Shown: one piece after another, positions 3,500-45,243 of the stretch
Numbering within the stretch: the first letter of the stretch is position 1
How the letters are laid out: the number at the start of each line of letters is the position of its first letter
Notes under the pieces: generated by a model
Database searches by the model: none
The model's input: only the letters and a program-made list of their open reading frames with translations
Told to the model about the DNA's origin: nothing
Origin: an uncultured Actinomycetes bacterium
GTDB lineage: Bacteria > Actinomycetota > Thermoleophilia > Gaiellales > Gaiellaceae
DNA: 64,000 nucleotides
Assembly: GCA_963760815.1 (NCBI GenBank)
Contig: CAVXEJ010000004.1
Coordinates: forward strand, 1,549,402-1,613,401
Reading direction: 5' to 3'
Translations under genes and position numbers: made by a program

Positions 3500-4456
3500 C
3501 GGCGCCGTGATCTCCACGAGCGCCCGCTCGAGCTCGAGCTCCGCCGGCAGCCGGCTGGCGCCCTTGAGCGCCGCGTCCAGCTCCGCGAGCCGGACGATCG
3601 CAGCGTCGAGCTCGTCGCGCGTGTAGTTCCGCGCGAACGAGAGGAGCTTCCTCGCCGGGTACTCCTTGATCTTGAGCCGCTTGGCGACCTCGGCCGATCC
3701 CAGGCCTTCCTCGGAGAACGCCTGCGCGGCGCGGACGCGGCTCACGTACCCCGCGAGCGCCGCGGCGATCCCGAACGGCTCGCGGTCGCGCTGCTCCAGG
3801 ATCGTCTCGCACTCCTCGAGGAGGCCCGGCAGGTCGCGCGCTCCCCATGCGTCGGTCAGGGTCCAGGGCACGAAGTCCCGCGACGTGACCGCCAGGAGCT
3901 CGACCTCGCGCCGGCCCACGGGCTCTCCCGCGGCCCAGGTGGCGAGCTTGTCGATTTCGGTTTCGAGCTCGAGCACGTCGTCCCCGACGATCTCGACGAG
4001 CGCGCGGGACGCGTCCGCATCGGCGCGGACGCCCAGCCGCTCGAATTCGGAGCGAACCCAGCCGGACGCGTCCTTCGACTTCGGCACGTCATAGGAGAGC
4101 ACCTGGCCCGCCTTCTCGCACGCGGCCACCAGCGCCGCCTGTTTCAGCGCGCCTTCGGCGACCAGCGCGAGAACGCTGTCGGGCGAAGGGTCGGCGAGGT
4201 AGGACACAACCGCGTCCACATCGTCGGCCTTCCACCGCTCGATTCCCTCGACGACGACGAGAGTCGCGCCGCCGGCTCCGAAGAGCCCGAGGGAGTTGCA
4301 GGCGGCGACCGCGTCCGCGCCCGTGGCCGTGTCCGCCGAGAGCAGCTCGATCGCCTCGTCGGGGAAGCGCCCCCGGAGGCGGACGATCGCGCGGTGGATC
4401 TTGGGCCGGTCGCTCCCGACCATGAGGTAGACGCGATGCAGGTCGTCGGTCGACAT
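3479..4456 (-). CDS. holA: DNA polymerase III delta subunit
   Basis: 325 aa. Reads as delta subunit (VYLMVGSDRPKIHRAIVRLR...LSADTATGADAVAACNSLGLFG...IDKLATWAAG). Lies in conserved comEC-holA-rpsT synteny. Confidence 0.8.
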   Translation of the reverse strand: MSTDDLHRVYLMVGSDRPKIHRAIVRLRGRFPDEAIELLSADTATGADAVAACNSLGLFGAGGATLVVVEGIERWKADDVDAVVSYLADPSPDSVLALVAEGALKQAALVAACEKAGQVLSYDVPKSKDASGWVRSEFERLGVRADADASRALVEIVGDDVLELETEIDKLATWAAGEPVGRREVELLAVTSRDFVPWTLTDAWGARDLPGLLEECETILEQRDREPFGIAAALAGYVSRVRAAQAFSEEGLGSAEVAKRLKIKEYPARKLLSFARNYTRDELDAAIVRLAELDAALKGASRLPAELELERALVEITAPRVHASA

Positions 4457-4469
4457 GGTGCGAGCATAT

Positions 4470-6764
4470 TCACCGCCCCCGCTCGCTGCGGACGGTCAGG
4501 CGCCGCCCGTCGGACTCGATCACGACCCGGCCGTCCTCGTCGGTGCGGAAGACCGTGAGCCCCGGCGCGACGGCGAGCGCGGCCAGCGTCTCCGGCGTCG
4601 GATGGCCGTACGTGTTCTCGTCACCGACTGAGATGACGGCGATGCTCGGAGTTGTCCTGCGCAGGAGCTCCGGCAGGGCCGGGTCGGCGGAGCCGTGGTG
4701 GGCGACCTTGAGGATCTCCACGTCAGGCAGGCCGAGCGGGACGGTCACGTTTGACTCGGCGTCGGCAGTGAGCAGCAGGTCGGTGCTGCCGTAGGTCGCG
4801 AGGAGGACGATCGCGTGGTCGTTCGGATTCCCGCCCTCGGGGCCCGGCCCGTCCGGCCAGAGCACGTGGAGCTCGAGCTCGCCGAGGCGATAGGTCTGGC
4901 CCCCGCGCGCGATCACGACCCGCACGCCGCGGTCGCGGGCGGCGCGCAACGCGGCGGCCTCCTCGGGGCTCTCGTTGGGGATGCCCGGATCGAGGACGAG
5001 ATCGACGCCGAGCCGTTCGAGAACCGCCTCGGCCCCGCCGACGTGGTCGCGCTCGGGGTGGGTGAGGACGAGCGCGGCCAGACGGTGGACGCCGAGCCGC
5101 TCGACCTGCTCGGCCACGTCGGCCTCGGGCGGGCCCTCGTCGACGAGGATCGCTCCCTCGGGAACCTGGAGCAGCGTCCCGTCGCCCTGGCCGACGTCGA
5201 GGAACGTCACGCGCAGGCCCGCCGGAGGTGCGGCAGCGGCGCCCTCGCCGGCGATCCACACGCGCCAGCCGGCGACGAGCGCGACGACCATCAGCGCGAG
5301 CGCGACGACCCTCGGGCCCCGCGGAGCCCGCAGCCGGGCGGCGAGGATCGCCCCCGCGCCGACGAGCAGGGCGACGGCAAGCGACCCGCGTGAGGTCAGG
5401 CGAGCGTGCGGAAGATCCGCGACGAACTCGGCGCACCACGCGAGGTACGCGGCCAGCCATCCGTTCACCCACGCGAGGGCGAAGGCCGCGGACGGCAGGA
5501 GCGGATCGAGGACGGCGCAGACGAGCGCGAATCCGAGCAGGAGCGGGACGACCGGTGCGGCGAGCGCGTTCGCAAGCACGGTGTAGACCGGAATCGCCCC
5601 GAAATGGAGCCACAGCACCGGCGCGGTGACGAGGCCGCAGCCGATCGAGAGCGCGACGCCCTGGGCGACCTTCGGCCGCAGCGGATAGCCCTCGAGCCGG
5701 CGCTCGATTCTCGGGACGAGGACGAAGATCGCGGCGACCGCGACGAACGAGAGCTGGAACCCCGGCTCGAGGAGCGCGTACGGATTGACCGCGAGGAGCA
5801 CGGCCGCGCCGACGAGCAGGAAGTACCACCGGTCGGACGGGCGCGAGGCGAGCCACGCGAGGGACACGAGCGTTCCGGCGACTCCGGCGCGGACGACCGA
5901 CGGCTGCCACCCGACCGCGCCCGTGTAGGCGACGACGCCCGCCACCGCAGCGAGGTGCCCGATCCGCCGCGGGACGCCCGCGACCCAGGCGGCGAGCAGG
6001 ATCCCGATCACGACGTACGCGACGTTCTGGCCCGACACGGCGAGCAGGTGGTAGAGCCCGGACGCCTTGAAGTCGTCCCGGAGCGGCTCGCTGAGCTGCT
6101 CGTCCTCGCCGAGGACGATCCCGCCGATGACCGCGCGCCGCTCTCCGGTGAGGCCGGGGGCCATCGACGCCGCCAGCCAGCGGCGCAGACTGTCCACCGC
6201 TCCGCGGACGCCCCCGCGTTCTCCGACCTGCCGGTAGGAGCCGGCGCGCAGGATCACGTGGACGCCCTGGCGTCCCAGGTACTCGGCCTCGTCGAACTCG
6301 CCGTCGGATTCGGCGCGTTGCGGCGCGTCGAGCTTCGCGACGATCTGCAGGATCGCGCCCTGCGGCGGCGAGCGGCCGAGCGGGAGCTCCAGGCGCGCGG
6401 GTTCGTTGAACTCCAGGCGATCGAACCGCCGGACACGCACCGGCACGCGGACGGCGAACCTCCCGACGCGCGCGGGACCGGTCACCTCGACGTTCGCGAG
6501 CCCCGCCTCGCCGATGTGCGGGGCGAGCGCGCTTCGGTCGAGTGCGTCCAGGCGCGCGGATCCCCACCAGACGCCGAGCAGCGCCAGCGCCAGAGCGAGC
6601 GCACCCAGCCTGCGCGGGCCCGTCGCGAACGGCGCGCAGATCACCAGGAGGGCCGCGACGGCCGCGGCCACCGCGCCCATGCGAAGCACGAGCGCCACGC
6701 CGAGCCCGACGCAGAGCGAGCCCGCGAGGACATGAGGCGCGCGAACAGGCGGCGCGCGCATCAC
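4470..6764 (-). CDS. comEC: DNA internalization competence protein ComEC/Rec2 with C-terminal metallo-beta-lactamase domain
   Basis: 764 aa polytopic membrane protein. Motifs ASGLYHLLAVSGQNV, FLDVGQGDGTLLQ, THPERDHVGG, KVAHHGSAD. Confidence 0.9.
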   Translation of the reverse strand: MMRAPPVRAPHVLAGSLCVGLGVALVLRMGAVAAAVAALLVICAPFATGPRRLGALALALALLGVWWGSARLDALDRSALAPHIGEAGLANVEVTGPARVGRFAVRVPVRVRRFDRLEFNEPARLELPLGRSPPQGAILQIVAKLDAPQRAESDGEFDEAEYLGRQGVHVILRAGSYRQVGERGGVRGAVDSLRRWLAASMAPGLTGERRAVIGGIVLGEDEQLSEPLRDDFKASGLYHLLAVSGQNVAYVVIGILLAAWVAGVPRRIGHLAAVAGVVAYTGAVGWQPSVVRAGVAGTLVSLAWLASRPSDRWYFLLVGAAVLLAVNPYALLEPGFQLSFVAVAAIFVLVPRIERRLEGYPLRPKVAQGVALSIGCGLVTAPVLWLHFGAIPVYTVLANALAAPVVPLLLGFALVCAVLDPLLPSAAFALAWVNGWLAAYLAWCAEFVADLPHARLTSRGSLAVALLVGAGAILAARLRAPRGPRVVALALMVVALVAGWRVWIAGEGAAAAPPAGLRVTFLDVGQGDGTLLQVPEGAILVDEGPPEADVAEQVERLGVHRLAALVLTHPERDHVGGAEAVLERLGVDLVLDPGIPNESPEEAAALRAARDRGVRVVIARGGQTYRLGELELHVLWPDGPGPEGGNPNDHAIVLLATYGSTDLLLTADAESNVTVPLGLPDVEILKVAHHGSADPALPELLRRTTPSIAVISVGDENTYGHPTPETLAALAVAPGLTVFRTDEDGRVVIESDGRRLTVRSERGR

Positions 6765-7351
6765 AGGTCGACCAGCTCCTTCAGGCGCTCGAGCCGCGCC
6801 GGCCCGATCCCCGGAACGGCGTCGAGCTCCTCCACGGATTGGAACGCGCCGTGCTCGGTGCGGTAGTCGAGGATCCCCTGCGCCGTGACCGGCCCGACGC
6901 CGGGCAGCGAGTCGAGCTGCTCGAGCGTCGCCGAGTTCAGGTGAACCCGCTGGCCCGCCGCGGCCGGCGCGCCCGAACCCGAGCCGCCCGCCGCCGCCTC
7001 GCCCTTCTTCGGCACGAGCACCTGCTGGCCGTCTGCAACGGGAGACGCGAGATTGACGAGGTCGAGCGCGGCCTTGGGCGTCGCGCCTCCGGCCTTGCGG
7101 ATGGCGTCGTCGACCCTGCTGCCCTCGTCGAGCCGGTACAGCCCGGGGCTCGCGACCGCGCCGACGACGTGCACGACCACCTTCCGGGCGACGGGCTCCT
7201 CGGTTTCGATCGCGACGGCGTTCGACCCGCCCGCAGGCGCCGCCTCTCCGCGCTCAAGGAACCGCGCCCCGACGACGAGGACGAGCAGCGCTACGGTCGC
7301 GTAGGCGAGCGCGCGGGCCCGGGAGATCGAAGGCATGTCCATCGACTCCAC
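6761..7351 (-). CDS. comEA: ComEA-family helix-hairpin-helix DNA-binding protein
   Basis: N-terminal TM helix. C-terminal LNSATLEQLDSLPGVGPVTAQGILDYRTEHGAFQSVEELDAVPGIGPARLERL. Stop overlaps the comEC start. Confidence 0.9.
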   Translation of the reverse strand: MESMDMPSISRARALAYATVALLVLVVGARFLERGEAAPAGGSNAVAIETEEPVARKVVVHVVGAVASPGLYRLDEGSRVDDAIRKAGGATPKAALDLVNLASPVADGQQVLVPKKGEAAAGGSGSGAPAAAGQRVHLNSATLEQLDSLPGVGPVTAQGILDYRTEHGAFQSVEELDAVPGIGPARLERLKELVDL

Positions 7352-7355
7352 TGTG

Positions 7356-7430
7356 GCGCGAGAAAACGCGCAGAACTGTCACGAATGTGCCGACTTCGCA
7401 ACGAAGGTGTGACGAAACTCAGCAGGCGGC
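7356..7430 (+). repeat. Weak, partial copy of the ~100-nt intergenic repeat family (copy D)
   Basis: Shares ctgtggcgcgagaaa and gaatgtgccgacttcg with copies at 11421 and 14396. Fills the comEA/marP-like gap. Confidence 0.3.
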
Positions 7431-7433
7431 CGG

Positions 7434-8567
7434 TCAGCCCGCGCAGGGGCCCGGATCGACCGGCGTGAGGCGCCCGTCGATCGCGTCGAGCACGGTCCCC
7501 ACCGGAACCGCGAAGCCGTCGTTTCCACTCCGCGATCCACCGAAGATCATCGCCACGACCCGGCCTTTTGCGTCCACGGCCGGCCCGCCGCTCTCGCCCC
7601 GCCGCACCTTGCCGCGCAGCGGCGTGACCCGGCGCAGCCCGACGCCGCCGCCGTCCGCGCTCGGGACGAGCATCCGGCGCGGCTCCCCCGCGGTTGCGGG
7701 CACGGCCACGAGCGCACCGTCCCCCGGGTAGCCGAGCAGGACGACCGGTAGCGGGTAGTCCGCCGACTCCAGCACCGGGAGCGGTTCCGTGGTCAGCCCG
7801 TTCACGCGCAGGATCGCAACGTCGTCGCCGGGGTCGCGGTAGACGATTGCCGCGTTGAGCCGTTCGCCGTCGGGCGTCAGCACCTGGGTGTCGCGCTCGC
7901 CCGAGATCACGTGCGCGTTCGTCGCCACCAGGTTCCCGCGCACGACCCAGCCCGAGCCCTGGATCCCGAGCCCGCACGACGTCCCCTCGATCTTCACCAC
8001 GCTCGCCGCCGCCGCCCGCGCGCCGGGACTGCGCAGGACGCTTCGGTCCGGCGGCGGCAGGTCGCGTGGGACGAGCTGCGGCAGGATCGGCAGCGGGTCG
8101 ATCCCCTCGAGCGTGCTGAGGACCGAGTCGGGCGGAAGGACGTCGACGAGCGCCGGCAGGACGACCGAGCGTTGCACCGCCTTGCGCAGGCCGAGCGACG
8201 GCTGCTGCAGCAGGAGCACGGCCAGCGCCCAGGCGAATGCGAGCGCCAGAAGACCGCCCACGAGCGCGCCGCCGATTCGGTCGAGGATCCCCAGCCCGGG
8301 AACGCGGAGGATGGTCATCTGCGCCCCGGCGGCGAGCCGGCCGGCTCCGAACCCGAAGGCCATCGCGCCCGCGGCCGCCCCGACGAGGGTCGCCAGCGGA
8401 AGCCAGTCGGCGTTCGCCTCGGGGAGCAGGTGCGGCGCGAGCCACGCGCCGACGACGAGGCCGGCGGCGACGCCGAGGAGCGAGATCACCTGCGCCGTGA
8501 ACCCGCGCATGTAGCCGGCGACCGCGAAGAGCGCGACGGCGGCGAGGACGAGGAGGTCGAAGCTCAC
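7434..8567 (-). CDS. MarP-like membrane serine protease (CvpA-type 4-TM N-terminus + trypsin-like S1 domain)
   Basis: MSFDLLVLAAVALFAVAGYMRGF... TM region, then VATNAHVISG (His), DVAILRV (Asp), GESGGPAVD (Ser). Confidence 0.8.
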   Translation of the reverse strand: MSFDLLVLAAVALFAVAGYMRGFTAQVISLLGVAAGLVVGAWLAPHLLPEANADWLPLATLVGAAAGAMAFGFGAGRLAAGAQMTILRVPGLGILDRIGGALVGGLLALAFAWALAVLLLQQPSLGLRKAVQRSVVLPALVDVLPPDSVLSTLEGIDPLPILPQLVPRDLPPPDRSVLRSPGARAAAASVVKIEGTSCGLGIQGSGWVVRGNLVATNAHVISGERDTQVLTPDGERLNAAIVYRDPGDDVAILRVNGLTTEPLPVLESADYPLPVVLLGYPGDGALVAVPATAGEPRRMLVPSADGGGVGLRRVTPLRGKVRRGESGGPAVDAKGRVVAMIFGGSRSGNDGFAVPVGTVLDAIDGRLTPVDPGPCAG

Positions 8568-13302: not shown

Positions 13303-13375
13303 TGGAGCCAGCGGGATTCGAACCCGCGACCTTCTGGCTGCCAGCCAGACGCTCTCCCAGCTGAGCTATGGCCCC
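13303..13375 (-). tRNA. tRNA-Ala (anticodon GGC)
   Basis: GGGGCCATAGCTCAGCTGGGAGAGCGTCTGGCTGGCAGCCAGAAGGTCGCGGGTTCGAATCCCGCTGGCTCCA folds as a cloverleaf. G3:U70 is present. Confidence 0.9.
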
Positions 13376-13771: not shown

Positions 13772-14377
13772 CTAGAGAGTAGCTCGATAGAGGCCGAGCT
13801 CGTCAATGAGCTGCTCAACGGCGTCGGGGACGAGCTCGTCGATCCGCTCGCCGCGGCCGACGCGATCGCGCACGTCGCGGGATGCGATCGGCAGCGGGTC
13901 GAGCTCGAACTCGACGATCCGGTCGGGGCGGGCAAGGCGGGTTTCCGCGGCGTCGACGCACGCGCGGTCCGTGCCCGGCCTGGTCGCGACCGCCAGGCGC
14001 ACCGCATCGAGGATCGTCTGTGGCTCGCGCCAGCCGGGGAAGTCGGCGAACTCGTCCGCGCCGACGACGAAGAGGACGTCGCCGTAGCGCTCGGCCGCCC
14101 AGCGCGCGGTGTCGACCGTGTAGGACGGGCCGTCGCCGTCGAGCTCGTGGCGCGAAAGTTCGACGCCGGGGATGCCCGCGAACGCGGCCTCGGCCAGGCG
14201 GAACCGCGTCTCCGCGTCCGTGTCGACCGGCTTGTGCGGTGCCTCGCCGACGACCACCACGATCAGGCGCTCCAGGCCGAGCGCCTCGATCGCGCGCCGC
14301 GCCAGCGCGACGTGCCCGTTGTGCGGCGGGTCGAACGTCCCGCCGAGGAGCCCTACAGCCATGGCCGTTCCGGACAT
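13772..14377 (-). CDS. nadD: Nicotinate-nucleotide adenylyltransferase
   Basis: GLLGGTFDPPHNGHVALA (HxGH nucleotidyltransferase motif), 201 aa. Alternative start at 14362. Confidence 0.9.
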   Translation of the reverse strand: MSGTAMAVGLLGGTFDPPHNGHVALARRAIEALGLERLIVVVVGEAPHKPVDTDAETRFRLAEAAFAGIPGVELSRHELDGDGPSYTVDTARWAAERYGDVLFVVGADEFADFPGWREPQTILDAVRLAVATRPGTDRACVDAAETRLARPDRIVEFELDPLPIASRDVRDRVGRGERIDELVPDAVEQLIDELGLYRATL

Positions 14378-14395
14378 GTCCGCCGGGCCCTAATC

Positions 14396-22704: not shown

Positions 22705-23216
22705 TTGCGGGCTCCCTTCGGTCGCGCGGGTCCGACTTGAAGATGCGCCCGACGAGCTTGTAGACCGGGTAGGCGATGAGCACGTTCAGCGCGAGCGTCG
22801 GCAGCAGCACGTGCCCGAAGAGCTCCCCGGCCGGGACGCTCTGGCCGAGCATGAAGTTGAAGATCGCCGAGCCGACCGCGACCCAGACGGTCGCGAGGGC
22901 GAGCGGCGATGAGCGGCGGGTGCGGCGAGTTGCGCGTCGTCGCCTCGCCGAACCGGCCCGTCCAGTAGCCGGCCAGGGTGAGGACGAGCGAGCTCAGGCC
23001 GAGGGGCTGCATCGTCCCGATGTCGAGCACGAACCCGGCCCAGAACCCGGCGACGGCGCCCAGCATGGGACCGCGCAGAAGCGAGAGCGACACGAGCGTG
23101 ACGAGCACCAGGTCGGCATGACCTCCCGCGATCGAGACCGGCGTCACGAAGCTGATCTGGATGAGCACCGCGACGAGCATCACGCCCGCGGTCTTGAGGA
23201 CGTCCGCGACGCTCAT
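22697..23216 (-). CDS. mreD: Rod shape-determining protein MreD; apparent frameshift near 22905-22925
   Basis: MSVADVLKTAGVMLVAVLIQISFV... lies in the ORF 22641..23282 frame. The shifted frame gives LALATVWVAVGSAIFNFMLGQSVPAGELFGHVLLPTLALNVLIAYPVYKLVGRIF, stop at 22697-22699. Confidence 0.75.
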
Positions 23217-25256: not shown

Positions 25257-25294
25257 CTAGCTGTTGCAGGGCTTTCGCTCTACGTTGGAGCGGA

Positions 25295-25354
25295 CGTGTC
25301 CCTTCGGGCCGTGTCCGGGGTCAGACCCCGGACATGGCCGTTTCGGCCGTGCCC
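25295..25354 (+). repeat. REP-like palindromic element, copy 1 (left flank of RAYT gene)
   Basis: cgtgtcccttcgggccGTGTCCGGGGTCAGACCCCGGACATggccgtttcggcc; the core hairpin is CCGGGGTC-A-GACCCCGG. Confidence 0.85.
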
Positions 25355-25413
25355 TTTGTGCCAAAACTGTGCCGTTTTCGGAGGAGCGGAAGGCTGGACC
25401 CTACGCTGAATTC

Positions 25414-25880
25414 GTGCCCCGTCCTCCCCGCATCCAAGTCGCCGGCGGCATCTACCACGTGACCGCTCGAGGGAACCGGCAGCAGGAGATATTTCGTTCC
25501 CCGACGGACTACGAGCTCTACACCGCGATGTTCCGCAGAATCGCGCACAGACTGGGCTGGCGGATCCTCGAGTACTGCCTCATGCCCAACCACGTGCACC
25601 TCGTCTTCGAGACGCCACTGCCGAACTTGTCGCGCGGAATGCAGTGGCTGAGCGGGACGTACGCCGCCTGTTTCAACGCTCGTTACGGACTGTCGGGCCA
25701 CCTGTTCCAGGGCCGGTTCCATTCCGTGCTGATCGAGGACGACGAACACCTCGCAGAACTGTCTCATTACGTTCCGAATAACCCCGTCCGAGCGGGGCTC
25801 TGCGCGCATGCGAACGAGTGGCCGTGGAGCAGCGCCGCCGCGCGCGAGACACGTCGCGAGGGGCCACGGCCGGGGTCTGA
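25414..25880 (+). mobile_element. REP-associated tyrosine transposase (RAYT; IS200/IS605-like Y1 HUH transposase); 3' end uncertain
   Basis: GGIYHVTARGNRQQEIF, LEYCLMPNHVHLVFE (HUH), GHLFQGRFHSVLIEDDEHLAELSHYVPNNPVRAGL (catalytic Tyr region), WPWSS. The frame has no stop until 26454 and reads through REP copy 2. Confidence 0.8.
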
Positions 25881-25904
25881 CCCCGGACACGGCTCGAATG
25901 GACG
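25862..25904 (-). repeat. REP-like palindromic element, copy 2 (right flank of RAYT, inverted relative to copy 1)
   Basis: ggccacggCCGGGGTCTGACCCCGGacacggctcgaatggac. Its reverse complement matches copy 1, including the flank gtcc.ttcg.gcc. Confidence 0.85.
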
Positions 25905-25905
25905 G

Positions 25906-26458
25906 TTAGCCGAGCCCCGGCGCGCCGGCGGGGAAGCGCCGCTCGAGGGCCGCGAGGAGCGCGGCCGCCGGGAGCCCGACCACGTTCAGGTAGTCGCCTT
26001 CGATCCGCTCGACGAGCGCGGCGCCGCGCCCCTGGATCGCGTACGCGCCGGCCCGGCCGTCCCACTCGCCGCTCGCGACGTACGCATCGAGGCCGGCGGC
26101 ACCGACAGGACGGAACGTCACCAGCGTCGTCGCCTCCACCGCCTCCTCCCACCCGGAGCCAACGAGGCAAAGCCCCGAGACCACCGCATGCGTCCGCCCC
26201 GCAAGCCGCCCGAGCATCGCCCGCGCCTCGCGCGGCATCACCCGGCTTCCCGAGCGTGTCGCCGTCGAGCACGACCGTCGTGTCCACGCCGAGCACCAGC
26301 TCGCCCGCCACCGACCGCGCCTTCCCCCGCGCGTGCTCGAGCGGAGACGCGTCGGGCCACACGCCCTCGTCGTACGCCGGCGCCACGACCTCGAACGGAA
26401 TCCCGAGCTGCTCCAGGATCGCGCGCCGCTGCGGAGACGTCGACGCGAGCGTGATCAC
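25906..26458 (-). CDS. maf: Maf-like nucleoside triphosphate pyrophosphatase; apparent frameshift near 26235
   Basis: GTG start gives [25 protein letters not shown]...GVDTTVVLDGDTLGKP, then the shifted frame gives REARAMLGRLAGRTHAVVSGL...GAYAIQGRGAALVERIEGDYLNVVGLP. Confidence 0.85.
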
Positions 26459-27228
26459 GCGGTCTTGCGCGCCTTCCAGATCTCCTCCGACGGCCACTTC
26501 CGGGCCCACTCGAGCGTGACGAAATCCCACTGCCCGGAGTTCCCGCCCTCGGGCGCCTGAAGCTCCAGAAGCTCCTCGACCGCGAAGCCGCTCTCACCGA
26601 GCAGCCGGATCATCTCGCCGTGCGAGACGACGTATTCGACGCTGCCGTCCTCGTCGGGCCATTCGATCCGCCCCAGCCGGCCGAAGTGCGGCGCCTGCAG
26701 CTCGGCCGTCGCCGGCACGGTTCCGTCCACCGGCGAGCACAGGACGAGCAGCGGCGAGGTCCGCAGGAACACGAGCCGCCCGCCCGGGCGCAGAAGCCGC
26801 GCGGCCTCGGGAATCCAGAGAGCCGGGTCGGCCCAGATGCTCGCGCCGTACTCCGACAAGGCGAGGTCGAACGACGCGTCGGGCAGAGGCACCGCCTCGG
26901 CCCCGGCTTGCACGACCGGGAACGAGACCCCGAACTCCTCCTGGAACCGCCGGCAGGTCGCAAGCTGCTCGGTGGACGGATCGACGCCGACGGGACGACC
27001 GCCGCGCCGCGCCACCCACGACGACACGTAACCCGTGCCGCAGCCCAGCTCGACCACATCCGCACCGTCCACGCCAGCGAGGAAATCGATCCCGGCGTCG
27101 GGGATGCCCCAGATCCCCCAGTTCGGCTCGTTCGACTCCCAGTTGCGCCGGCCGGCCTCCACGTACTGGCCGGCCCAGCCGTCCCAGGCCGCGGCATTTC
27201 GCGCGACCGAGTCCGGAACGTCAGTCAA
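26455..27228 (-). CDS. Class I SAM-dependent methyltransferase
   Basis: [26 protein letters not shown] (motif I), LRPGGRLVF. Proposed TTG start overlaps the ndk stop; its own stop overlaps the maf GTG (GTGA). Confidence 0.7.
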
Positions 27229-33878: not shown

Positions 33879-33938
33879 GCACGTCCCTTTCAGCCACGAC
33901 CGGGGTCAGACCCCGGGCATGGCCCGAAGGGACACGCC
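33879..33938 (+). repeat. REP-like palindromic element, copy 3 (full-length ~58-nt hairpin between convergent cyclase and clpX)
   Basis: cacgtccctttcagccacgaCCGGGGTCAGACCCCGGgcatggcccgaagggacacgccc. Confidence 0.85.
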
Positions 33939-33962
33939 CGCCGCGGAAGCGCGGAGCCGCGG

Positions 33963-37291: not shown

Positions 37292-37375
37292 TGCGGGCGA
37301 GAGGACTCGAACCTCCAAGAGCTTTCGCTCAACGGGTCCTAAACCCGTCGCGTCTACCAGTTCCGCCACACCCGC
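37292..37375 (-). tRNA. tRNA-Leu (anticodon TAG)
   Basis: GCGGGTGTGGCGGAACTGGTAGACGCGACGGGTTTAGGACCCGTTGAGCGAAAGCTCTTGGAGGTTCGAGTCCTCTCGCCCGCA, with a long variable arm. Confidence 0.9.
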
Positions 37376-37411: not shown

Positions 37412-38254
37412 ATGCGAGGGCTCATGGAACGGAAGTGGCCCGCGATCCTCGCCCGTGCCGCACGCGGCGCCCTCGCCGACGGAGCGACCGACGTCGCCGC
37501 GGCGCTCGCCTACTACGCGTTCCTGGCCGTGCCGGCCGTCGGGCTCGTCACGCTCGGGCTCTTCACCGTCCTCGCGGGCGAGGACACCGTGGACGGCCTG
37601 GTCGACCGGCTCGACGGCGTCGTCCCTGACGAGGCGACCGCGCTCGTCCAGGACTCCCTCACGCGCGCGCTCGACAACCACACCGGCGGGATCGCGCTGA
37701 TCGTCGTCGGCGTCGTGCTCGCGGTCTGGACGGCGACCAGCGCGATGGGCGCCCTCATGCGCGGGCTGAACCGGATCCATGGGCTGGCCGAGAGCCGCTC
37801 GTACGTGCGCCGGCGGCTGCTCGCGCTCCTCATGCTCGGCTGGGTGCTGCTCGCGCTCGCGCTCCTGCTGGCGCTGCTCGTGCTCGGGCCGGTCATGTCC
37901 GAGTGGGTCGGCGACGCGCTCGACGCCGAGAGCGCCGTCAGCTGGATCTGGTGGATCGCCCAGTGGCCGATCCTGCTCGGCGTGCTGTTCGCGACCTTCG
38001 GCGCGGTGCTCTACCTCGGCCCGAACACGGAGCCGCGGCGGCTTCGCCTCGTGACTCCCGGGGCGGTAGTCGCGATCACGATCTGGCTCGTTGCGTCGGG
38101 CGGGTTCGCGATCTACGTCGACCGCTTCGGCTCCTACAACAAGGCGTGGGGCTCGCTCGCGGGCGTGATCATCGTCCTCACCTGGCTGTGGCTCTCCGCG
38201 CTCGCGCTCGTCCTCGGCGCCGAGGTGAACAAGGAGGCCGAGCGCGCGCGCTGA
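37412..38254 (+). CDS. YihY/BrkB-family membrane protein
   Basis: 280 aa polytopic; DVAAALAYYAFLAVPAVGL...WGSLAGVIIVLTWLWLSALALVLGAEVN. Confidence 0.8.
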   Translation: MRGLMERKWPAILARAARGALADGATDVAAALAYYAFLAVPAVGLVTLGLFTVLAGEDTVDGLVDRLDGVVPDEATALVQDSLTRALDNHTGGIALIVVGVVLAVWTATSAMGALMRGLNRIHGLAESRSYVRRRLLALLMLGWVLLALALLLALLVLGPVMSEWVGDALDAESAVSWIWWIAQWPILLGVLFATFGAVLYLGPNTEPRRLRLVTPGAVVAITIWLVASGGFAIYVDRFGSYNKAWGSLAGVIIVLTWLWLSALALVLGAEVNKEAERAR

Positions 38255-38306
38255 GCGAAAGGCCATGTCCGGGGTCAGACCCCGGCCGTGGCCGAAACGG
38301 ACGGTG
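38255..38306 (+). repeat. REP-like palindromic element, copy 4
   Basis: aaaggccatgtCCGGGGTCAGACCCCGGccgtggccgaaacggacgg. Confidence 0.85.
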
Positions 38307-38407
38307 GCGCGGCGCGCTCGAGGTCGCAAACGCTCTGGGCACGCGCCACCGGCAGTTTGGCTCTGCGCGAATCTCCATCGTTCAGGTGGACAAGGCGGCC
38401 TCGCCCC

Positions 38408-38455
38408 GGCGGCCATGTCCGGGGTCAGACCCCGGCCGTGGCCGAAAGGGACGGG
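38408..38455 (+). repeat. REP-like palindromic element, copy 5
   Basis: ggcggccatgtCCGGGGTCAGACCCCGGccgtggccgaaagggacggg. Confidence 0.85.
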
Positions 38456-38484
38456 TGAAGCCCGGGACTAGACTGGCTCTGCCC

Positions 38485-38556
38485 GGCCCCGTAGCTCAGT
38501 GGATAGAGCGGCAGGCTTCGAACCTGCGCGCGGAGGTTCGATTCCTCCCGGGGCCA
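38485..38556 (+). tRNA. tRNA-Arg (anticodon TCG)
   Basis: GGCCCCGTAGCTCAGTGGATAGAGCGGCAGGCTTCGAACCTGCGCGCGGAGGTTCGATTCCTCCCGGGGCCA folds as a cloverleaf with a 4-nt variable loop. Confidence 0.85.
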
Positions 38557-39905: not shown

Positions 39906-40103
39906 GTGATCAAGCTCTATTTCCTTCTCACGCGCGGGTGGAAGCTCATCCCGAGGCGGCACCGGCGGCAGGCGATGATCACCGCCGCGATGCTGGCGAA
40001 GACGCACGGCCCCAAGGCCGCGCGCCTGGCGCGGGAGCACGGGCCGAAGATCGCCGATGCGGCCAACCGCGCCCGCGCCGCCGTGCGCAAGCCGCCCCGC
40101 TAG
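39906..40103 (+). CDS. Small basic hypothetical protein (65 aa)
   Basis: GTG start 6 nt after GGAGG. MIKLYFLLTRGWKLIPRRHRRQ... Confidence 0.4.
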   Translation: MIKLYFLLTRGWKLIPRRHRRQAMITAAMLAKTHGPKAARLAREHGPKIADAANRARAAVRKPPR

Positions 40104-40105
40104 CT

Positions 40106-40151
40106 CGTCCTCTCGAGCCACGGCCGGGGTCTGACCCCTGACCTGTCCACG
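40106..40151 (-). repeat. REP-like palindromic element, copy 6 (inverted orientation, slightly degenerate)
   Basis: gagccacggCCGGGGTCTGACCCCTGacctgtccacg. Confidence 0.75.
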
Positions 40152-40208
40152 ATTTCGCTCGCCCGCGGTTCGATTTGGCTCACGACGGGCGGTCGGCTGC
40201 GAAAGGAC

Positions 40209-40255
40209 GCGTCCGTTTCGGGCATGCCAGGGGTCAGACCCCGGCCATGTCCCGC
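40209..40255 (+). repeat. REP-like palindromic element, copy 7
   Basis: gcgtccgtttcgggcatgCCAGGGGTCAGACCCCGGccatgtcccgc. Confidence 0.8.
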
Positions 40256-40258
40256 TCG

Positions 40259-42190
40259 CTAGCCCGGCTCGCGAGGCATCTCGGCGGCGAGATCGCGCGC
40301 GAACCCGGCGACCACCTCCTCGAGCTCCGCGTGCCGCTCCGGCTCCCAGCCGTCGAGGAGCTCGGCGATCCGCTTCTCCCGCGCGGCCACGAGGCGGTCG
40401 TGCGCCTGAACGCCGGCATCCGTCAGCCGGGAGCCGGACACCACGAACCCCCGGCCGCGCAGCTCGAGCAGCGGCCCGGCCAGCCGTTCCGGCGCGACGA
40501 CCGGCGTGTCGCCGTCGCCCATCCGGATGAGCAGCCAGGCCGCCGCGGGTGTGACCTCCACCCCGGCCCGGTCGGCCAGCCCCGCGTACGCGCGCCAGCG
40601 GTTCTCCCGCTCGGTGAGCACCGACAGCGAACGCACGAGCTCCTCGAACGAGTCAGTCGAGCGCGGCGACGCGAAGCTTTCGCCGATCCCCTCGGCCTCG
40701 ACCGTGCGGCGCAGCGGAAGCTCCTCGAGGAACCAGGTGAGCACGAAGGCGACGGCCGCGATGAACGCCGCGGCGAGGAACACGGGCCGGATCGAGGTCG
40801 CGAACGCTTCCACGTAGGCGGCGTGCACGGCCTCCGGAAGCGCGGCGATCGTGGCCGGATCGGTCGCGTCGGGAACCGCCGCGCCGGGAGGGATCCGCGA
40901 CGCGAGGTTCGTCGCGAGCTGGTTCGCGAAGATAGCGCCGAAGAGCGAGACCCCGATCGAGCCGCCGATCGACCGGAAGAGCGTCGCTCCCGATGTAGCG
41001 ACGCCCAGGAACGTGTAGTCGACCGCGTTCTGCACCGCGAGGACGAGCACCTGCATCACGAACCCGAGCCCCAGCCCGAGCAGGAGCATGTAGGCGTCGA
41101 CCTGGAGCAGGCTCGTGTCCTCCGTGATCCGCGACAGCAGCGCGAGGGCCACGGTCATGAGCGCGGTTCCGACGATCGGGAAGACGCGGTAGCGCCCGAT
41201 CCGTGAGATCAGCTGGCCGCTGCCGATCGACGTCACGAGCAGGCCGGCCATGAGCGGCAGGAGCTGCAGCCCCGAGGCCGCCGGGCTCTGGCCCTTGGCG
41301 ATCTGGAGGTAGAGCGGCAGGTAGGTGACCGACCCGAAGAGCGCGAGCCCGACGATGAAGCCGATCGCGCTCGCGACCGAGAAGACACGGTTTTGGAACA
41401 GGACGAGCGGGAGGATCGGTTCGGCCGCGCGACGCTCCACGGCGAGGAATCCCGCCACCCCGCCCGCGCCGAGGATGGCCAGCAGGACGATCGTCGGCGA
41501 GCTCCAGCCGAGCGTCGTGCCGCCGAGGCTCGTGAAGAGGACGATCGAGGTGAGCGCGAGCGCGAGGAGCGCTGCTCCCAGGTAGTCGATCGTGTGCTGG
41601 CGGCGCTCGGACGGCGCCTGCAGAACGATCGCGACGACGGCGAACGCGGCCGCGCCGATCGGGATGTTCACGTAGAAGATCCAGCGCCACGAGAGGTGCT
41701 CGACGATGAATCCGCCGGCGAGCGGCCCGATGATCGTCGCGAGGCCGAAGACGGCGCCGAACATCCCCTGGTAGCGGCCGCGGTCGCGCGGCGGGACGAT
41801 GTCGCCCACGCTGGCGATCGCCGTCACCATGAGCCCGCCGCCGCCGATTCCCTGGATGGCGCGGAACGCGATCAGCTGCGGCATGTCCTGGGCGAGCCCG
41901 CACAGCGCCGAGCCGAGCAGGAAGATCAGGATGGCCGACTGCAGCATCAGCTTGCGGCCGTACAGGTCGCCGAGCTTTCCGTAGAGCGGCGTCACGATGG
42001 TCGCGCCAAGGAGGTAGGCGGTCACCACCCAGGACAGGTGCTCGACGCCGCCGAGCTCGCCGACGATCGTCGGCAGTGCGGTCGAGACGATCGTCTGGTC
42101 GAGAGCGGCGAGGAGGACTACGAGGAGCAGGGCGCCGAAGACGACCCGCACACGCGGCTGCGCGGCGGTCGGCTCGGCGGCGGCGCTCAT
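40259..42190 (-). CDS. DHA2-type MFS efflux transporter with C-terminal MarR-like cytoplasmic extension
   Basis: From MSAAAEPTAAQPRVRVVFGALLLVVLLAALDQTIVSTALPTIV...GKLGDLYGRK; about 14 TM helices, then a ~140-aa soluble tail (WLLIRMGDGD...LELRGRGFVVSGSRLTDAG). Confidence 0.8.
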   Translation of the reverse strand: MSAAAEPTAAQPRVRVVFGALLLVVLLAALDQTIVSTALPTIVGELGGVEHLSWVVTAYLLGATIVTPLYGKLGDLYGRKLMLQSAILIFLLGSALCGLAQDMPQLIAFRAIQGIGGGGLMVTAIASVGDIVPPRDRGRYQGMFGAVFGLATIIGPLAGGFIVEHLSWRWIFYVNIPIGAAAFAVVAIVLQAPSERRQHTIDYLGAALLALALTSIVLFTSLGGTTLGWSSPTIVLLAILGAGGVAGFLAVERRAAEPILPLVLFQNRVFSVASAIGFIVGLALFGSVTYLPLYLQIAKGQSPAASGLQLLPLMAGLLVTSIGSGQLISRIGRYRVFPIVGTALMTVALALLSRITEDTSLLQVDAYMLLLGLGLGFVMQVLVLAVQNAVDYTFLGVATSGATLFRSIGGSIGVSLFGAIFANQLATNLASRIPPGAAVPDATDPATIAALPEAVHAAYVEAFATSIRPVFLAAAFIAAVAFVLTWFLEELPLRRTVEAEGIGESFASPRSTDSFEELVRSLSVLTERENRWRAYAGLADRAGVEVTPAAAWLLIRMGDGDTPVVAPERLAGPLLELRGRGFVVSGSRLTDAGVQAHDRLVAAREKRIAELLDGWEPERHAELEEVVAGFARDLAAEMPREPG

Positions 42191-42495: not shown

Positions 42496-42550
42496 GTCCG
42501 AAAACTACCGGCGCGGCGCGGGCGCAAAACGGCGGCGGCACCTCCGGCGG

Positions 42551-42611
42551 ACACGCCCGTTCGAGCCATGCCCGGGGTCAGACCCCGGGCATGGCCAGGA
42601 AGGACACGTCC
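42551..42611 (+). repeat. REP-like palindromic element, copy 8
   Basis: acacgcccgttcgagccatgcCCGGGGTCAGACCCCGGgcatggccaggaaggacacgtcc. Confidence 0.85.
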
Positions 42612-42690
42612 GAGGGTTCGCGCAGGCGCATGCGTCCATCGGATCTTCCGCGGCGCCGGGACATGGCCAGGGACAGGGCCCGGACAATGA

Positions 42691-42744
42691 CGGTTTGGGC
42701 CATGGCCGGGGTCAGACCCCGGGCGTGGCCTGAAGGGACACGTC
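42691..42744 (+). repeat. REP-like palindromic element, copy 9 (preceded by a degenerate fragment at 42653-42690)
   Basis: cggtttgggccatggCCGGGGTCAGACCCCGGgcgtggcctgaagggacacgtc. Confidence 0.85.
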
Positions 42745-43754
42745 TAGGCGAACGCGCCGGCGTAGCCGTTCAGGGCCGGCTGACCGCCGAGATGGGCGTA
42801 CAGGACGCGTGAGCCGGGCGCGATGCGCCCGTCGCGGACGAGGTCGATGAGCGCCGCCATGGACTTGCCTTCGTAGACCGGGTCGGTGATGACGCCCTCG
42901 AGCCGCGCGCACAGGCGGATCGCCTCGATCGTCTTCTCGTCCGGAATCCCGTAGATCCCGGCGTGCCACTCGTCCAGCAGCACGATCTCCTCGTCGGCGA
43001 GCTCGCGGCCCAGGCCGATCGCCTCCGCCGTGAACCGCGCGATGCGCGCGATCTGCTCCCACGTCTGCTCCACCGTCGCCGAGCCGTCGATTCCGAGCAC
43101 CGAACGCTCCGCCTCCTGGAGCGCGAACCCGGCGACCATCCCCGCGTGCGTCGAGCCGGTCACGGCGCAGACGACGATCGTGTCGAAGAAGACGCCGAGC
43201 TCCGCCTCCTGCTCGGCGACCTCGCCCGCCCAGCGCGCGAACCCGAGCCCGCCGAGCGGATGATCCGATGCACCCGCCGGAATCGGATACGGCTTGCCGC
43301 CGCGCTCGAGGACCGAGTCGAGCGCCTCCTGCCAGCTCGGCCTGATCCCGATGTCGAACCCGGCCGCATCGAGCCGCACGTCGGCGCCCATGATCCGCGA
43401 CAGGAGGATGTTGCCGACCCGGTCGTACACGGGATCGTCCCAGTCCACCCAGTGCTCCTGGACGAGCACGCAGCCGAGCCCGAGGTGCGCGGCGACCGCG
43501 GCGACCTGGCGCGTGTGGTTCGACTGGACGCCGCCGATCGAGACGAGCGTGTCGCAGCCCTGCGCGAGCGCCTCGGCGGCCAGGTACTCGAGCTTGCGCA
43601 CCTTGTTCCCGCCGTAGGCGAGCCCCGAGCTCACGTCCTCGCGCTTGGCCCAGATCTCGACCTCGCCGCCGAGGTGCTCGCTCAGCCGCTCGAGCCGATG
43701 CACCGGCGACGGCCCGAACGTGAGCGGAACGCGATCGAAGTCGGCGAGAGCCAT
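42744..43754 (-). CDS. acdS: 1-aminocyclopropane-1-carboxylate deaminase
   Basis: [21 protein letters not shown]...[11 protein letters not shown] (PLP Lys)...[21 protein letters not shown]...DPVYEGKSM...[10 protein letters not shown]. The YE and L signatures fit a true ACC deaminase rather than a D-Cys desulfhydrase. Confidence 0.85.
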
Positions 43755-45050: not shown

Positions 45051-45124
45051 GGTGGCGGATGGGACTCGAACCCACGACAACCGGGACCACAACCCGGGGC
45101 TCTACCAACTGAGCTACCGCCACC
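45051..45124 (-). tRNA. tRNA-His (anticodon GTG, encoded G-1)
   Basis: G-GTGGCGGTAGCTCAGTTGGTAGAGCCCCGGGTTGTGGTCCCGGTTGTCGTGGGTTCGAGTCCCATCCGCCACC. Confidence 0.9.
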
Positions 45125-45170
45125 TCGCTGCATTCATCCTAGCGTCGGCACTTGCTACGGTCGCCCGCGG

Positions 45171-45243
45171 GCGCCTGTAGCTCAGTGGACAGAGCGGCGG
45201 ACTTCTAATCCGCGGGTCGGAGGTTCGAATCCTCCCAGGCGCA
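45171..45243 (+). tRNA. tRNA-Arg (anticodon TCT)
   Basis: GCGCCTGTAGCTCAGTGGACAGAGCGGCGGACTTCTAATCCGCGGGTCGGAGGTTCGAATCCTCCCAGGCGCA. Confidence 0.9.

Follow-up and report, generated by a model that had tools for sequence, protein, structure and literature searches.

Work on repetitive extragenic palindromes (REPs) and the REP-associated tyrosine transposases (RAYTs) has so far been done almost wholly in Proteobacteria, with some in Cyanobacteria. The RAYTs of Proteobacteria are vertically inherited and kept in the same extragenic space, as the literature on REPIN-RAYT systems has described. Di Nocera et al. 2013 (PMC3733652) set RAYTs flanked by GTAG-REPs apart from 'TIRYTs', which have longer flanking inverted repeats; many of these terminal inverted repeats contain GGGGWSAS, and some are self-complementary, moderately repeated and often paired. 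Quentin 2018 (PMC6006769) equated the TIRYTs with TnpAY1 subclass 2.1, whose proteins are among the longest of the family and whose TIRYT members all carry a C-terminal helix-turn-helix (HTH)-like domain of the Bac_DnaA_C, HTH_23 or HTH_28 type. The Actinobacteridae in that sample had IS200-type genes only, and Actinobacteria are unmentioned in the RAYT literature that we searched. Here we describe a RAYT gene and its palindromic repeat in a stretch of 64,000 nucleotides from an uncultured Actinomycetes bacterium of the Gaiellaceae (assembly GCA_963760815.1, contig CAVXEJ010000004.1, positions 1,549,402 to 1,613,401 of the forward strand), hereafter called the window, whose own numbering is used throughout. 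We propose that this locus is very probably a REP/RAYT system of 'TIRtron' type, that is, a domesticated, immobile Y1 HUH transposase together with a dispersed palindrome that it would spread.

The RAYT gene lies in a plus-strand frame that starts with GTG at 25414 and is open up to 26454. Its translation contains, in this order, MPRPPRIQVAGGIYHVTARGN, CLMPNHVHLVF, SHYVPNNPVRAGL and WPWSS, and then continues as AAARETRREGPRPGSDPGHG through the right-hand repeat, in agreement with the original prediction, which had read PNHVHLVF, the tyrosine region and PRPGSDPGHG across that repeat from the same frame. The HUH motif (H60-V61-H62) is encoded at 25591-25599 and the catalytic Tyr119 at 25768-25770, and the class-2 tyrosine signature Y---NP is present as Y119-VPN-NP; the HuH and Tyr columns are invariant in the alignment of the window protein and its relatives. 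The RAYT affinity that had been proposed from these motifs is borne out by profile searches. The protein matched Pfam Y1_Tnp (E 5e-14) and narrowly passed the REP_Tyr_transpos model NF047646 of NCBIfam (82.7 bits, cutoff 80), while it failed the IS200 model NF033573 (21.7 bits, cutoff 55). The best solved-structure match by sequence was E. coli TnpAREP (4ER8), aligned over amino acids (aa) 7-140 with the HUH histidines in register and Tyr115 of the E. coli protein facing Tyr119. A protein search gave 3800 homologues, the best only about 60% identical and most of them 183-190 aa long; PF01797 is the sole domain on record in the top 120 listed, and the JGI annotation already names many homologues RayT. 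Judged from its sequence, the gene product is a Y1 HUH transposase of RAYT type (TnpAY1 class 2), present in one copy in the window. The GC content at third codon positions (GC3) is 0.82 in this gene and 0.93-0.94 in mreB and ndk.

The repeat has the apex CCGGGGTC-W-GACCCCGG. With up to two mismatches allowed, its core CCGGGGTCWGACCCCGG was counted nine times in the window, against 0.05 occurrences expected and with 0 of 100 shuffles reaching this number, and seven of the nine copies have a perfect 17-nt core. All nine lie by more than 90% outside the open reading frames (ORFs) of high GC3, though such ORFs cover 88% of the window. The copies fall at six intergenic sites, mainly after stop codons or between convergent genes, and three of these sites carry doublets with a spacing of 104-150 nt. 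A profile search with nhmmer, built from the window copies, gave no further full copies in the window, and no Rfam family covers the repeat, only tRNAs being matched in the window. The palindrome is thus repeated well beyond the transposase gene, as had been predicted, with seven more extragenic copies in the window and many in metagenome-assembled genomes (MAGs) of related Gaiellaceae and Thermoleophilia. The gene and the repeat copies are the following.

25414 to 25842, plus strand: RAYT catalytic core, aa 1-143, with WPWSS at its end (profile models, alignment, 4ER8 match).
25843 to 26454, plus strand: continuation of the open frame without homology to the RAYT relatives, crossing the right repeat before it runs antisense to maf (ORF translation, alignment).
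25356 to 25413, plus strand: spacer from the upstream repeat to the RAYT start, with GTGCC repeats and TACGCT (TAnnnT) 6 nt before the GTG.
25289 to 25355, no strand: upstream flanking copy, apex CCGGGGTCAGACCCCGG at 25315-25331, between the starts of mreB and the RAYT gene (nhmmer 52.8 bits, plus orientation; fold z -3.45).
25846 to 25910, no strand: downstream flanking copy, apex CCGGGGTCTGACCCCGG at 25870-25886, with degenerate outer arms and abutting the maf stop codon at 25906-25908 (nhmmer 48.8 bits, minus orientation; fold z -0.96).
33879 to 33940, no strand: dispersed copy between a convergent cyclase-like gene and clpX (core scan, nhmmer, folding).
38252 to 38305, no strand: dispersed copy, first member of a doublet, beginning at the stop codon of a BrkB-like gene (core scan, nhmmer).
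38401 to 38459, no strand: dispersed copy, second member of that doublet, just before the tRNA gene at 38485-38556 (core scan, nhmmer, Rfam for the tRNA).
40099 to 40155, no strand: dispersed copy with one core mismatch, first member of a doublet, between convergent genes (core scan, nhmmer).
40202 to 40260, no strand: dispersed copy with one core mismatch, second member of that doublet, in the opposite orientation (core scan, nhmmer).
42547 to 42613, no strand: dispersed copy, first member of a doublet, between an MFS transporter gene and a PALP-enzyme gene (core scan, nhmmer; fold z -4.96).
42682 to 42746, no strand: dispersed copy, second member of that doublet (core scan, nhmmer).

The two copies that flank the RAYT gene have arms of 42 nt (25298-25339 and 25862-25903) that are 90% complementary and only 76% alike as direct repeats, and nhmmer placed them on opposite preferred strands. 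The claim that the same palindrome brackets the gene in inverted orientation is confirmed; its part on orientation rests on few asymmetric positions, because the element itself is a near-perfect palindrome. The central base (A/T) was considered as an orientation mark and dropped, because its orientation relative to the RAYT strand varies across related loci. This flanking arrangement is not particular to the window. Each of the 11 related RAYT genes that we examined, from assemblies of Gaiellaceae/Thermoleophilia type, is likewise flanked at both ends by the repeat or a close core variant, and three of these genes are at non-syntenic loci (L117, L118 and L128; L numbers denote loci and P numbers homologous proteins). 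The upstream core ends 82 nt from the start codon in the window, and 82-85 nt from it in six of the 11 related loci. At locus L131, a short-form RAYT of 154 aa at the mreB-maf position is flanked by the variant core GGTGTCAGACGCC (apex CCGGTGTCAGACGCCGG) and its reverse complement, with the apexes at 3910-3926 and 4488-4504; the inverted orientation is clear there because this core is asymmetric. The L131 locus hints that enzyme and repeat change together.

A scan of genome contigs for the 17-mer gave at least 119 stretches. Among the stretches listed, 57 belong to MAGs that bear the labels Gaiellaceae, Gaiellales, Thermoleophilia or uncultured Actinomycetes/Actinomycetota, and most of these 57 have the same extended palindrome. 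In three of the listed stretches (L066, L117, L118), a RAYT homologue lies right next to the repeat.

The chromosomal address of the gene is conserved as well. In the window and in eight related loci, the RAYT gene lies between mreB and maf on the opposite strand; these loci are L066 and those of seven of the eight homologues whose genomic positions were looked up (P0010, P0100, P0013, P0001, P0106, P0042 and P0104). The gene of the eighth, P0063, is found elsewhere, between a DUF192 gene and glmS. Identities between the window and the syntenic loci were 84-93% for MreB, 87-90% for ClpX and 72-82% for Ndk, and 61-65% for RAYT, 60-65% for Maf and 40-53% for MreC. RAYT has thus diverged in step with its neighbours, about as much as Maf, which suggests long vertical inheritance from a common ancestor. 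The synteny points to a RAYT gene that has been held at the mreB-maf address since the common ancestor of a group of Gaiellales-like Actinomycetota.

Each copy of the repeat can be drawn as one long hairpin of 50-65 nt. At its tip, a 7-bp stem (CCGGGGT/ACCCCGG) carries a loop of 3 nt; beneath this apex stem there is usually one mismatched position, followed by a second 7-bp stem (GGCCATG/CATGGCC). The outer part consists of a variable internal loop (TTC/GAA region) and a GTCCC/GGGAC stem, at times lengthened to GACGTG/CACGTC. Of the four copies folded as single-stranded DNA, three were much more stable than shuffles, with z values from -3.5 to -5.0. The fourth was the right-flanking copy, which is more degenerate than the other eight in the window; its apex hairpin is intact, and as a whole element (z -0.96) it folds no better than shuffles. 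We analyzed covariation in 97 distinct copies from the window and the actinobacterial loci, a set based on taxon that replaced a strict palindrome filter; the latter lost most true copies because of indels in the arms. The outer arms covary: their score is 0.225, while shuffles give 0.119 (none of 500 equals the observed value) and sliding the partner gives no more than 0.124. Covarying pairs include GGCCATG/CATGGCC, GGACGTG/CACGTCC and GGACAGG/CCTGTCC. Across these copies the apex is invariant and the outer arms are conserved as a hairpin only. We also considered whether the terminal GACGTG...CACGTC could be the CGTC tag of Di Nocera and rejected this as mere resemblance; the CGTC repeats have short stems of 8-9 bp, AT-rich first positions and no link to a RAYT.

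Among the described branches, the window protein is closest to the TIRYTs (roughly subclass 2.1) and not to the GTAG-REP branch of E. coli. In blastp against the sequences of Additional file 5 of Di Nocera, with RAYT and TIRYT labels assigned from the text of that paper, it was 33-43% identical to the main TIRYT set (E 1e-24 to 1e-39), including Desulforudis dau_2153, Geobacter gbm_2474, Rhodopirellula rba_2408, Koribacter aba_2776 and Stenotrophomonas sml_1152, and 21-29% identical to the GTAG-type RAYTs (E 1e-7 to 1e-14). It shares with the TIRYTs the motifs MPRxxR...YHV..RGN, CLMxNHxHL, GHLxQxRF, YxxxNPVRAGL and W.WSS, as well as flanking inverted repeats with GGGGWSAS. The motif GGGGTCAG fits GGGGWSAS exactly and is found in the apexes of the window copies (a minority of which have a core mismatch) and in most related copies, with the variant GGTGTCAG/GGCGTCTG taking the place of a GGGGWSAS-type motif at L131. 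The 17-mer apex was also seen in other phyla (L009, L016, L032, L035, L044, L054, L062, L082, L095 and L104; hosts include Acidobacteriota, Massilia and relatives, Fictibacillus, Clostridia and Gemmatimonadaceae), where it forms the centre of longer, different palindromes or lies in tandem GGGGTCAG arrays; no RAYT gene was found near it inside the 8-kb blocks of these ten loci. These occurrences agree with the presence of the GGGGWSAS motif in TIRYT repeats across phyla.

On the other hand, the proteins of the Gaiellales type differ from subclass 2.1 in being short (183-190 or 150-154 aa, relatives 150-210 aa overall) and in having no C-terminal HTH-like domain, only PF01797 being recorded in the top 120 listed. 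Their flanks belong to an extragenic family that is dispersed in the window and on many contigs of related MAGs, while Quentin reported no REP-like sequences nearby, and their host phylum, Actinomycetota, is unreported for class 2 in that survey. With short proteins, no HTH-like domain and a dispersed repeat family, the locus is most aptly called a short RAYT of TIRYT-like type that has a true REP family.

With the E. coli REPtron (Nunvar 2010; Ton-Hoang 2012; Messing 2012, PDB 4ER8; subclass 2.2 or RAYT Group 2) the locus shares a single immobile, vertically inherited Y1 gene with dispersed-palindrome flanks, a catalytic domain that aligns end to end, and repeats at gene 3' ends and in doublets. 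However, protein identity is only 21%, the C-terminal tail of the relatives is not homologous to the autoinhibitory tail of the E. coli protein, and the window repeat is a long, near-perfect palindrome instead of a short, imperfect one. It also has no unpaired 5' GTAG. The unpaired 5' GT[AG]G of canonical GTAG-type REPs (subclasses 2.2, 2.4, 2.5, 2.7 and 2.8) was found at the hairpin foot of none of the aligned copies, GTGG occurring only within the paired arm C(C/A)(G/A)TGGCC. The REPIN-RAYT systems of Pseudomonas (Bertels and Rainey 2011, 2017, 2022) are alike in combining non-autonomous hairpin repeats with one vertically inherited RAYT in the same extragenic space between species. They differ in that a REPIN consists of two inverted REP units around a spacer, whereas here there is one continuous palindrome with a 3-nt loop; besides, their enzyme is of another RAYT group, and replication is putative for the present repeats. 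The original prediction of a REPtron, a RAYT gene with repeat flanks, thus stands in its architecture and is refined in its affinity, from the classical E. coli/Pseudomonas branch to a TIRYT/subclass-2.1-like one without GTAG. IS200/IS605 elements (TnpA, subclass 1.1) have in common with the locus the Y1 HUH fold and chemistry and a recognition of hairpins on single-stranded DNA that is predicted for the window enzyme; the differences from them bear on one of the alternatives considered next.

By analogy with E. coli TnpAREP and IS200/IS605 TnpA, we hypothesize that the RAYT enzyme would bind the folded apex hairpin on single-stranded DNA and would cut and rejoin nearby by means of Tyr119 and an HUH-bound metal. 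The palindrome would thereby be copied into other intergenic sites, mostly gene 3' ends, as singles and local doublets, and the RAYT gene itself would stay in place. Several points weigh against this proposal of a REP/RAYT system. The window gene is without tail and stop codon, its syntenic ortholog at L066 is broken, and its GC3 is below that of its neighbours (0.82 against 0.93). Quentin 2018 (PMC6006769) found no REP-like sequences adjoining subclass 2.1 genes, and since the foot of the hairpin bears neither GTAG nor GTGG, the rules by which E. coli TnpAREP recognises and cleaves its substrate are not simply transferable. Part of the apex invariance follows from the way in which the loci were chosen, since it was by the exact 17-mer that they were found. 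No pair of empty and filled sites was found, and mobility of the repeat is a prediction from sequence.

Two alternatives would take the transposase and the palindrome apart, or make them one ordinary element. The palindromes might be host regulatory hairpins, terminators or mRNA stabilisers, that are unrelated to the transposase and adjoin it by chance; most copies do lie at the 3' ends of convergent genes, and the arms covary as in a selected hairpin. We regard this as highly unlikely, given that the repeat stands on both sides of the window gene and of all 11 related RAYTs, three of them at unrelated loci, with a near-fixed upstream spacing, that the variant RAYT of L131 carries a variant core on both sides, and that no T-run and no terminator-like site accompanies the repeat. 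The repeats may in addition be of use to the host as hairpins at 3' ends, a role that is compatible with RAYT-driven spread and not an alternative to it. An even smaller chance is left to an ordinary IS200/IS605 insertion sequence whose own left and right ends are the flanking hairpins, an explanation that a Y1_Tnp domain with hairpins on either side could call to mind and that is already largely refuted. The protein falls short of the IS200 equivalog model (21.7 bits, cutoff 55); what flanks the gene is a repeat that is dispersed without a transposase gene, not a pair of distinct IS-specific ends; only one copy of the gene and no tnpB occur in the 64 kb; and its position is fixed, not variable, across lineages in which Maf is only 60-65% identical.

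The other two alternatives concern the 3' end and the activity of the window copy, and leave the identity of the system untouched. In relatives of 183-210 aa, WPWSS is followed by a conserved tail (YRA..G..RP..FL.....L..FG..P..AR..F..FV.D), and the reading frame stops a few bases short of the downstream repeat, while the P0010 ORF runs into the repeat instead. In the window protein, homology stops at about aa 143-152, where the right repeat starts; about 40-45 codons and the stop are absent, and no remnant of the tail was found in any frame or downstream of the gene. What had been left as an unsettled 3' end in the original prediction is thus explained in part by a missing C-terminal tail and stop, possibly with an assembly indel in addition. 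The window RAYT could be a decaying pseudogene that lost its last ~45 codons and stop by deletion or by recombination between repeats, with the repeats being relics or kept for host roles (mRNA 3' hairpins) and no longer mobilised. We consider this possible, though below an even chance. It would account for the end of homology at the repeat start, the frame without a stop before 26454, the degenerate right repeat and the lower GC3 (0.82, against 0.93-0.94 in mreB and ndk). It would also fit the state of the L066 ortholog (MAG CAVRBT01, 7212-7947), which is broken in at least two places, its N-terminal part (7278-7439) not sharing a frame with the rest (7603-7947) and the HUH region holding about 115 extra bases; that MAG was built from long reads, so sequence errors are possible there. 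The missing tail and stop, the broken L066 ortholog and the low GC3 together suggest that the window copy may be inactive. Decay is less easily reconciled with the complete catalytic core, in which HUH, Tyr, NP and WPWSS are intact, with the perfect 17-nt cores in seven of the nine window copies, and with the naturally tail-less forms of 150-154 aa, ending about 12 residues past WPWSS, that are kept at the mreB-maf locus of other lineages (P0104, 42 member sequences). Moreover, truncation of the C terminus raises the cleavage activity of E. coli TnpAREP, whose tail is autoinhibitory (PMC3479197).

Such short forms also bear on the somewhat less probable explanation that an indel from assembly or sequencing has left the 3' end open, and that the gene is really a short-form RAYT of ~155-164 aa with its stop in or just past the right repeat. 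One base added before 25878 brings TGA 25878-25880, at the repeat apex, into frame (~155 aa), and in simulation one base removed before 25878 gives a stop near 25906 and 162 aa. Single frameshifts in mreD and maf, within 4 kb of the RAYT gene, make assembly indels plausible. In mreD (minus strand, 22712-23204), which breaks near 22903, aa 5-105 and aa 105-168 of the match to an intact relative fall in different frames, and maf (minus strand, 25906-26530) is split into two frames near 26241 by an apparent extra base (GKPGDAA|c|EARAML, 26235-26250). With this base removed, the maf product covers the whole Pfam Maf model (E 5e-50), in keeping with the convergent maf gene that had been predicted; the split itself may stem from a sequencing indel or reflect a genuine frameshift. 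Counting against an indel in the RAYT gene, the error must fall within a stretch of ~45 nt, the residues past WPWSS are unlike the short-form ending FYGATDLVFDR in any frame, and the frameshift sites in mreD and maf lie outside long homopolymers and could be real mutations.

The REP/RAYT system proposed here would be a counter-example to the survey of Quentin, both as class 2 in Actinomycetota and as a REP-like partner for a TIRYT-like subclass. The literature that we searched seems to contain no description of the repeat family or of its association with a TIRYT-like enzyme, nor of such a system in an actinobacterial host or of the deep mreB-maf conservation. The novelty in taxonomy that the original prediction expected is therefore consistent with the published record, which lists IS200-type genes only for Actinobacteridae, but is tempered by automated annotation that already labels the genes RayT. 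No principle is altered, and the type of gene is one already recognised by such annotation. Fixation of the RAYT gene, antisense between maf and mreB in the maf-mreBCD cell-shape cluster, from the ancestor of a clade of family or order rank onwards raises the possibility of a host role. A wider reading, which we put forward only tentatively and think rather unlikely to hold as a whole, would take this as the first documented REP-RAYT system of Actinomycetota, in which a TIRYT/subclass-2.1-like branch drives or drove a true dispersed palindrome family, in which the locus, its hairpins or an embedded promoter serve the host by keeping the expression of maf and mreB apart, and in which tail-less forms are de-repressed like E. 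coli TnpAREP delta152. For comparative work the lineage offers the same address in many diverged genomes, an apex that is invariant or varies with the RAYT (L131), and long, short and broken forms of the enzyme. These could be used to study co-evolution of RAYT specificity and repeats, regulation by the C-terminal tail outside E. coli, and the persistence time of repeats.

The spacer at 25356-25413 may be a regulatory region, an operator plus a leaderless promoter. A TGTGCCRAG-like motif ~30-45 nt past the apex of the upstream repeat is conserved in the alignment of the window with the equivalents at L066, L121, L124, L128, L129 and L130, and the same loci have a TAnnnT hexamer 6-8 nt 5' of the RAYT start without a Shine-Dalgarno sequence. 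The motif and the hexamer near the start suggest a leaderless transcript. Scans for sigma-70 promoter and terminator consensus around the RAYT gene gave no match.

As to the dispersed copies, those at 38269 and 38419 are identical in their central ~45 nt, asymmetric mismatches included, which points to local duplication. Many copies in related MAGs were also seen as doublets, 83-135 nt apart (L004 2638/2773; L052 5625/5708; L053 2118/2247; L118 5323/5429). They are near-identical including flanks and asymmetric mismatches, suggesting recent local (tandem-like) duplication and not independent insertion. Five tRNA genes occur in the window (38485-38556, 37292-37375, 45051-45243, 13303-13375), and one of them begins 26 nt after the doublet at 38.3-38.5 kb. 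Fragments that resemble repeat arms and have no apex were observed as well, namely GGGACATGGCCAGGGACAGGGCC at 42655-42690 within the doublet at 42.5-42.7 kb and, as a weak partial profile match, at 14357-14382; the apex-less fragments may be remnants of rearranged copies. A hyperactive truncated enzyme would predict a genome unusually rich in repeats; the syntenic mreB-clpX stretch holds three copies in the window and two to three in the relatives, the other six window copies being outside the compared DNA. A copy directly downstream of clpX is present in the window (33879-33940), at L126 (18207) and at L123 (17316) and not at L121/L122 and L124, so that either this copy is old and retained or the site is a hot spot.

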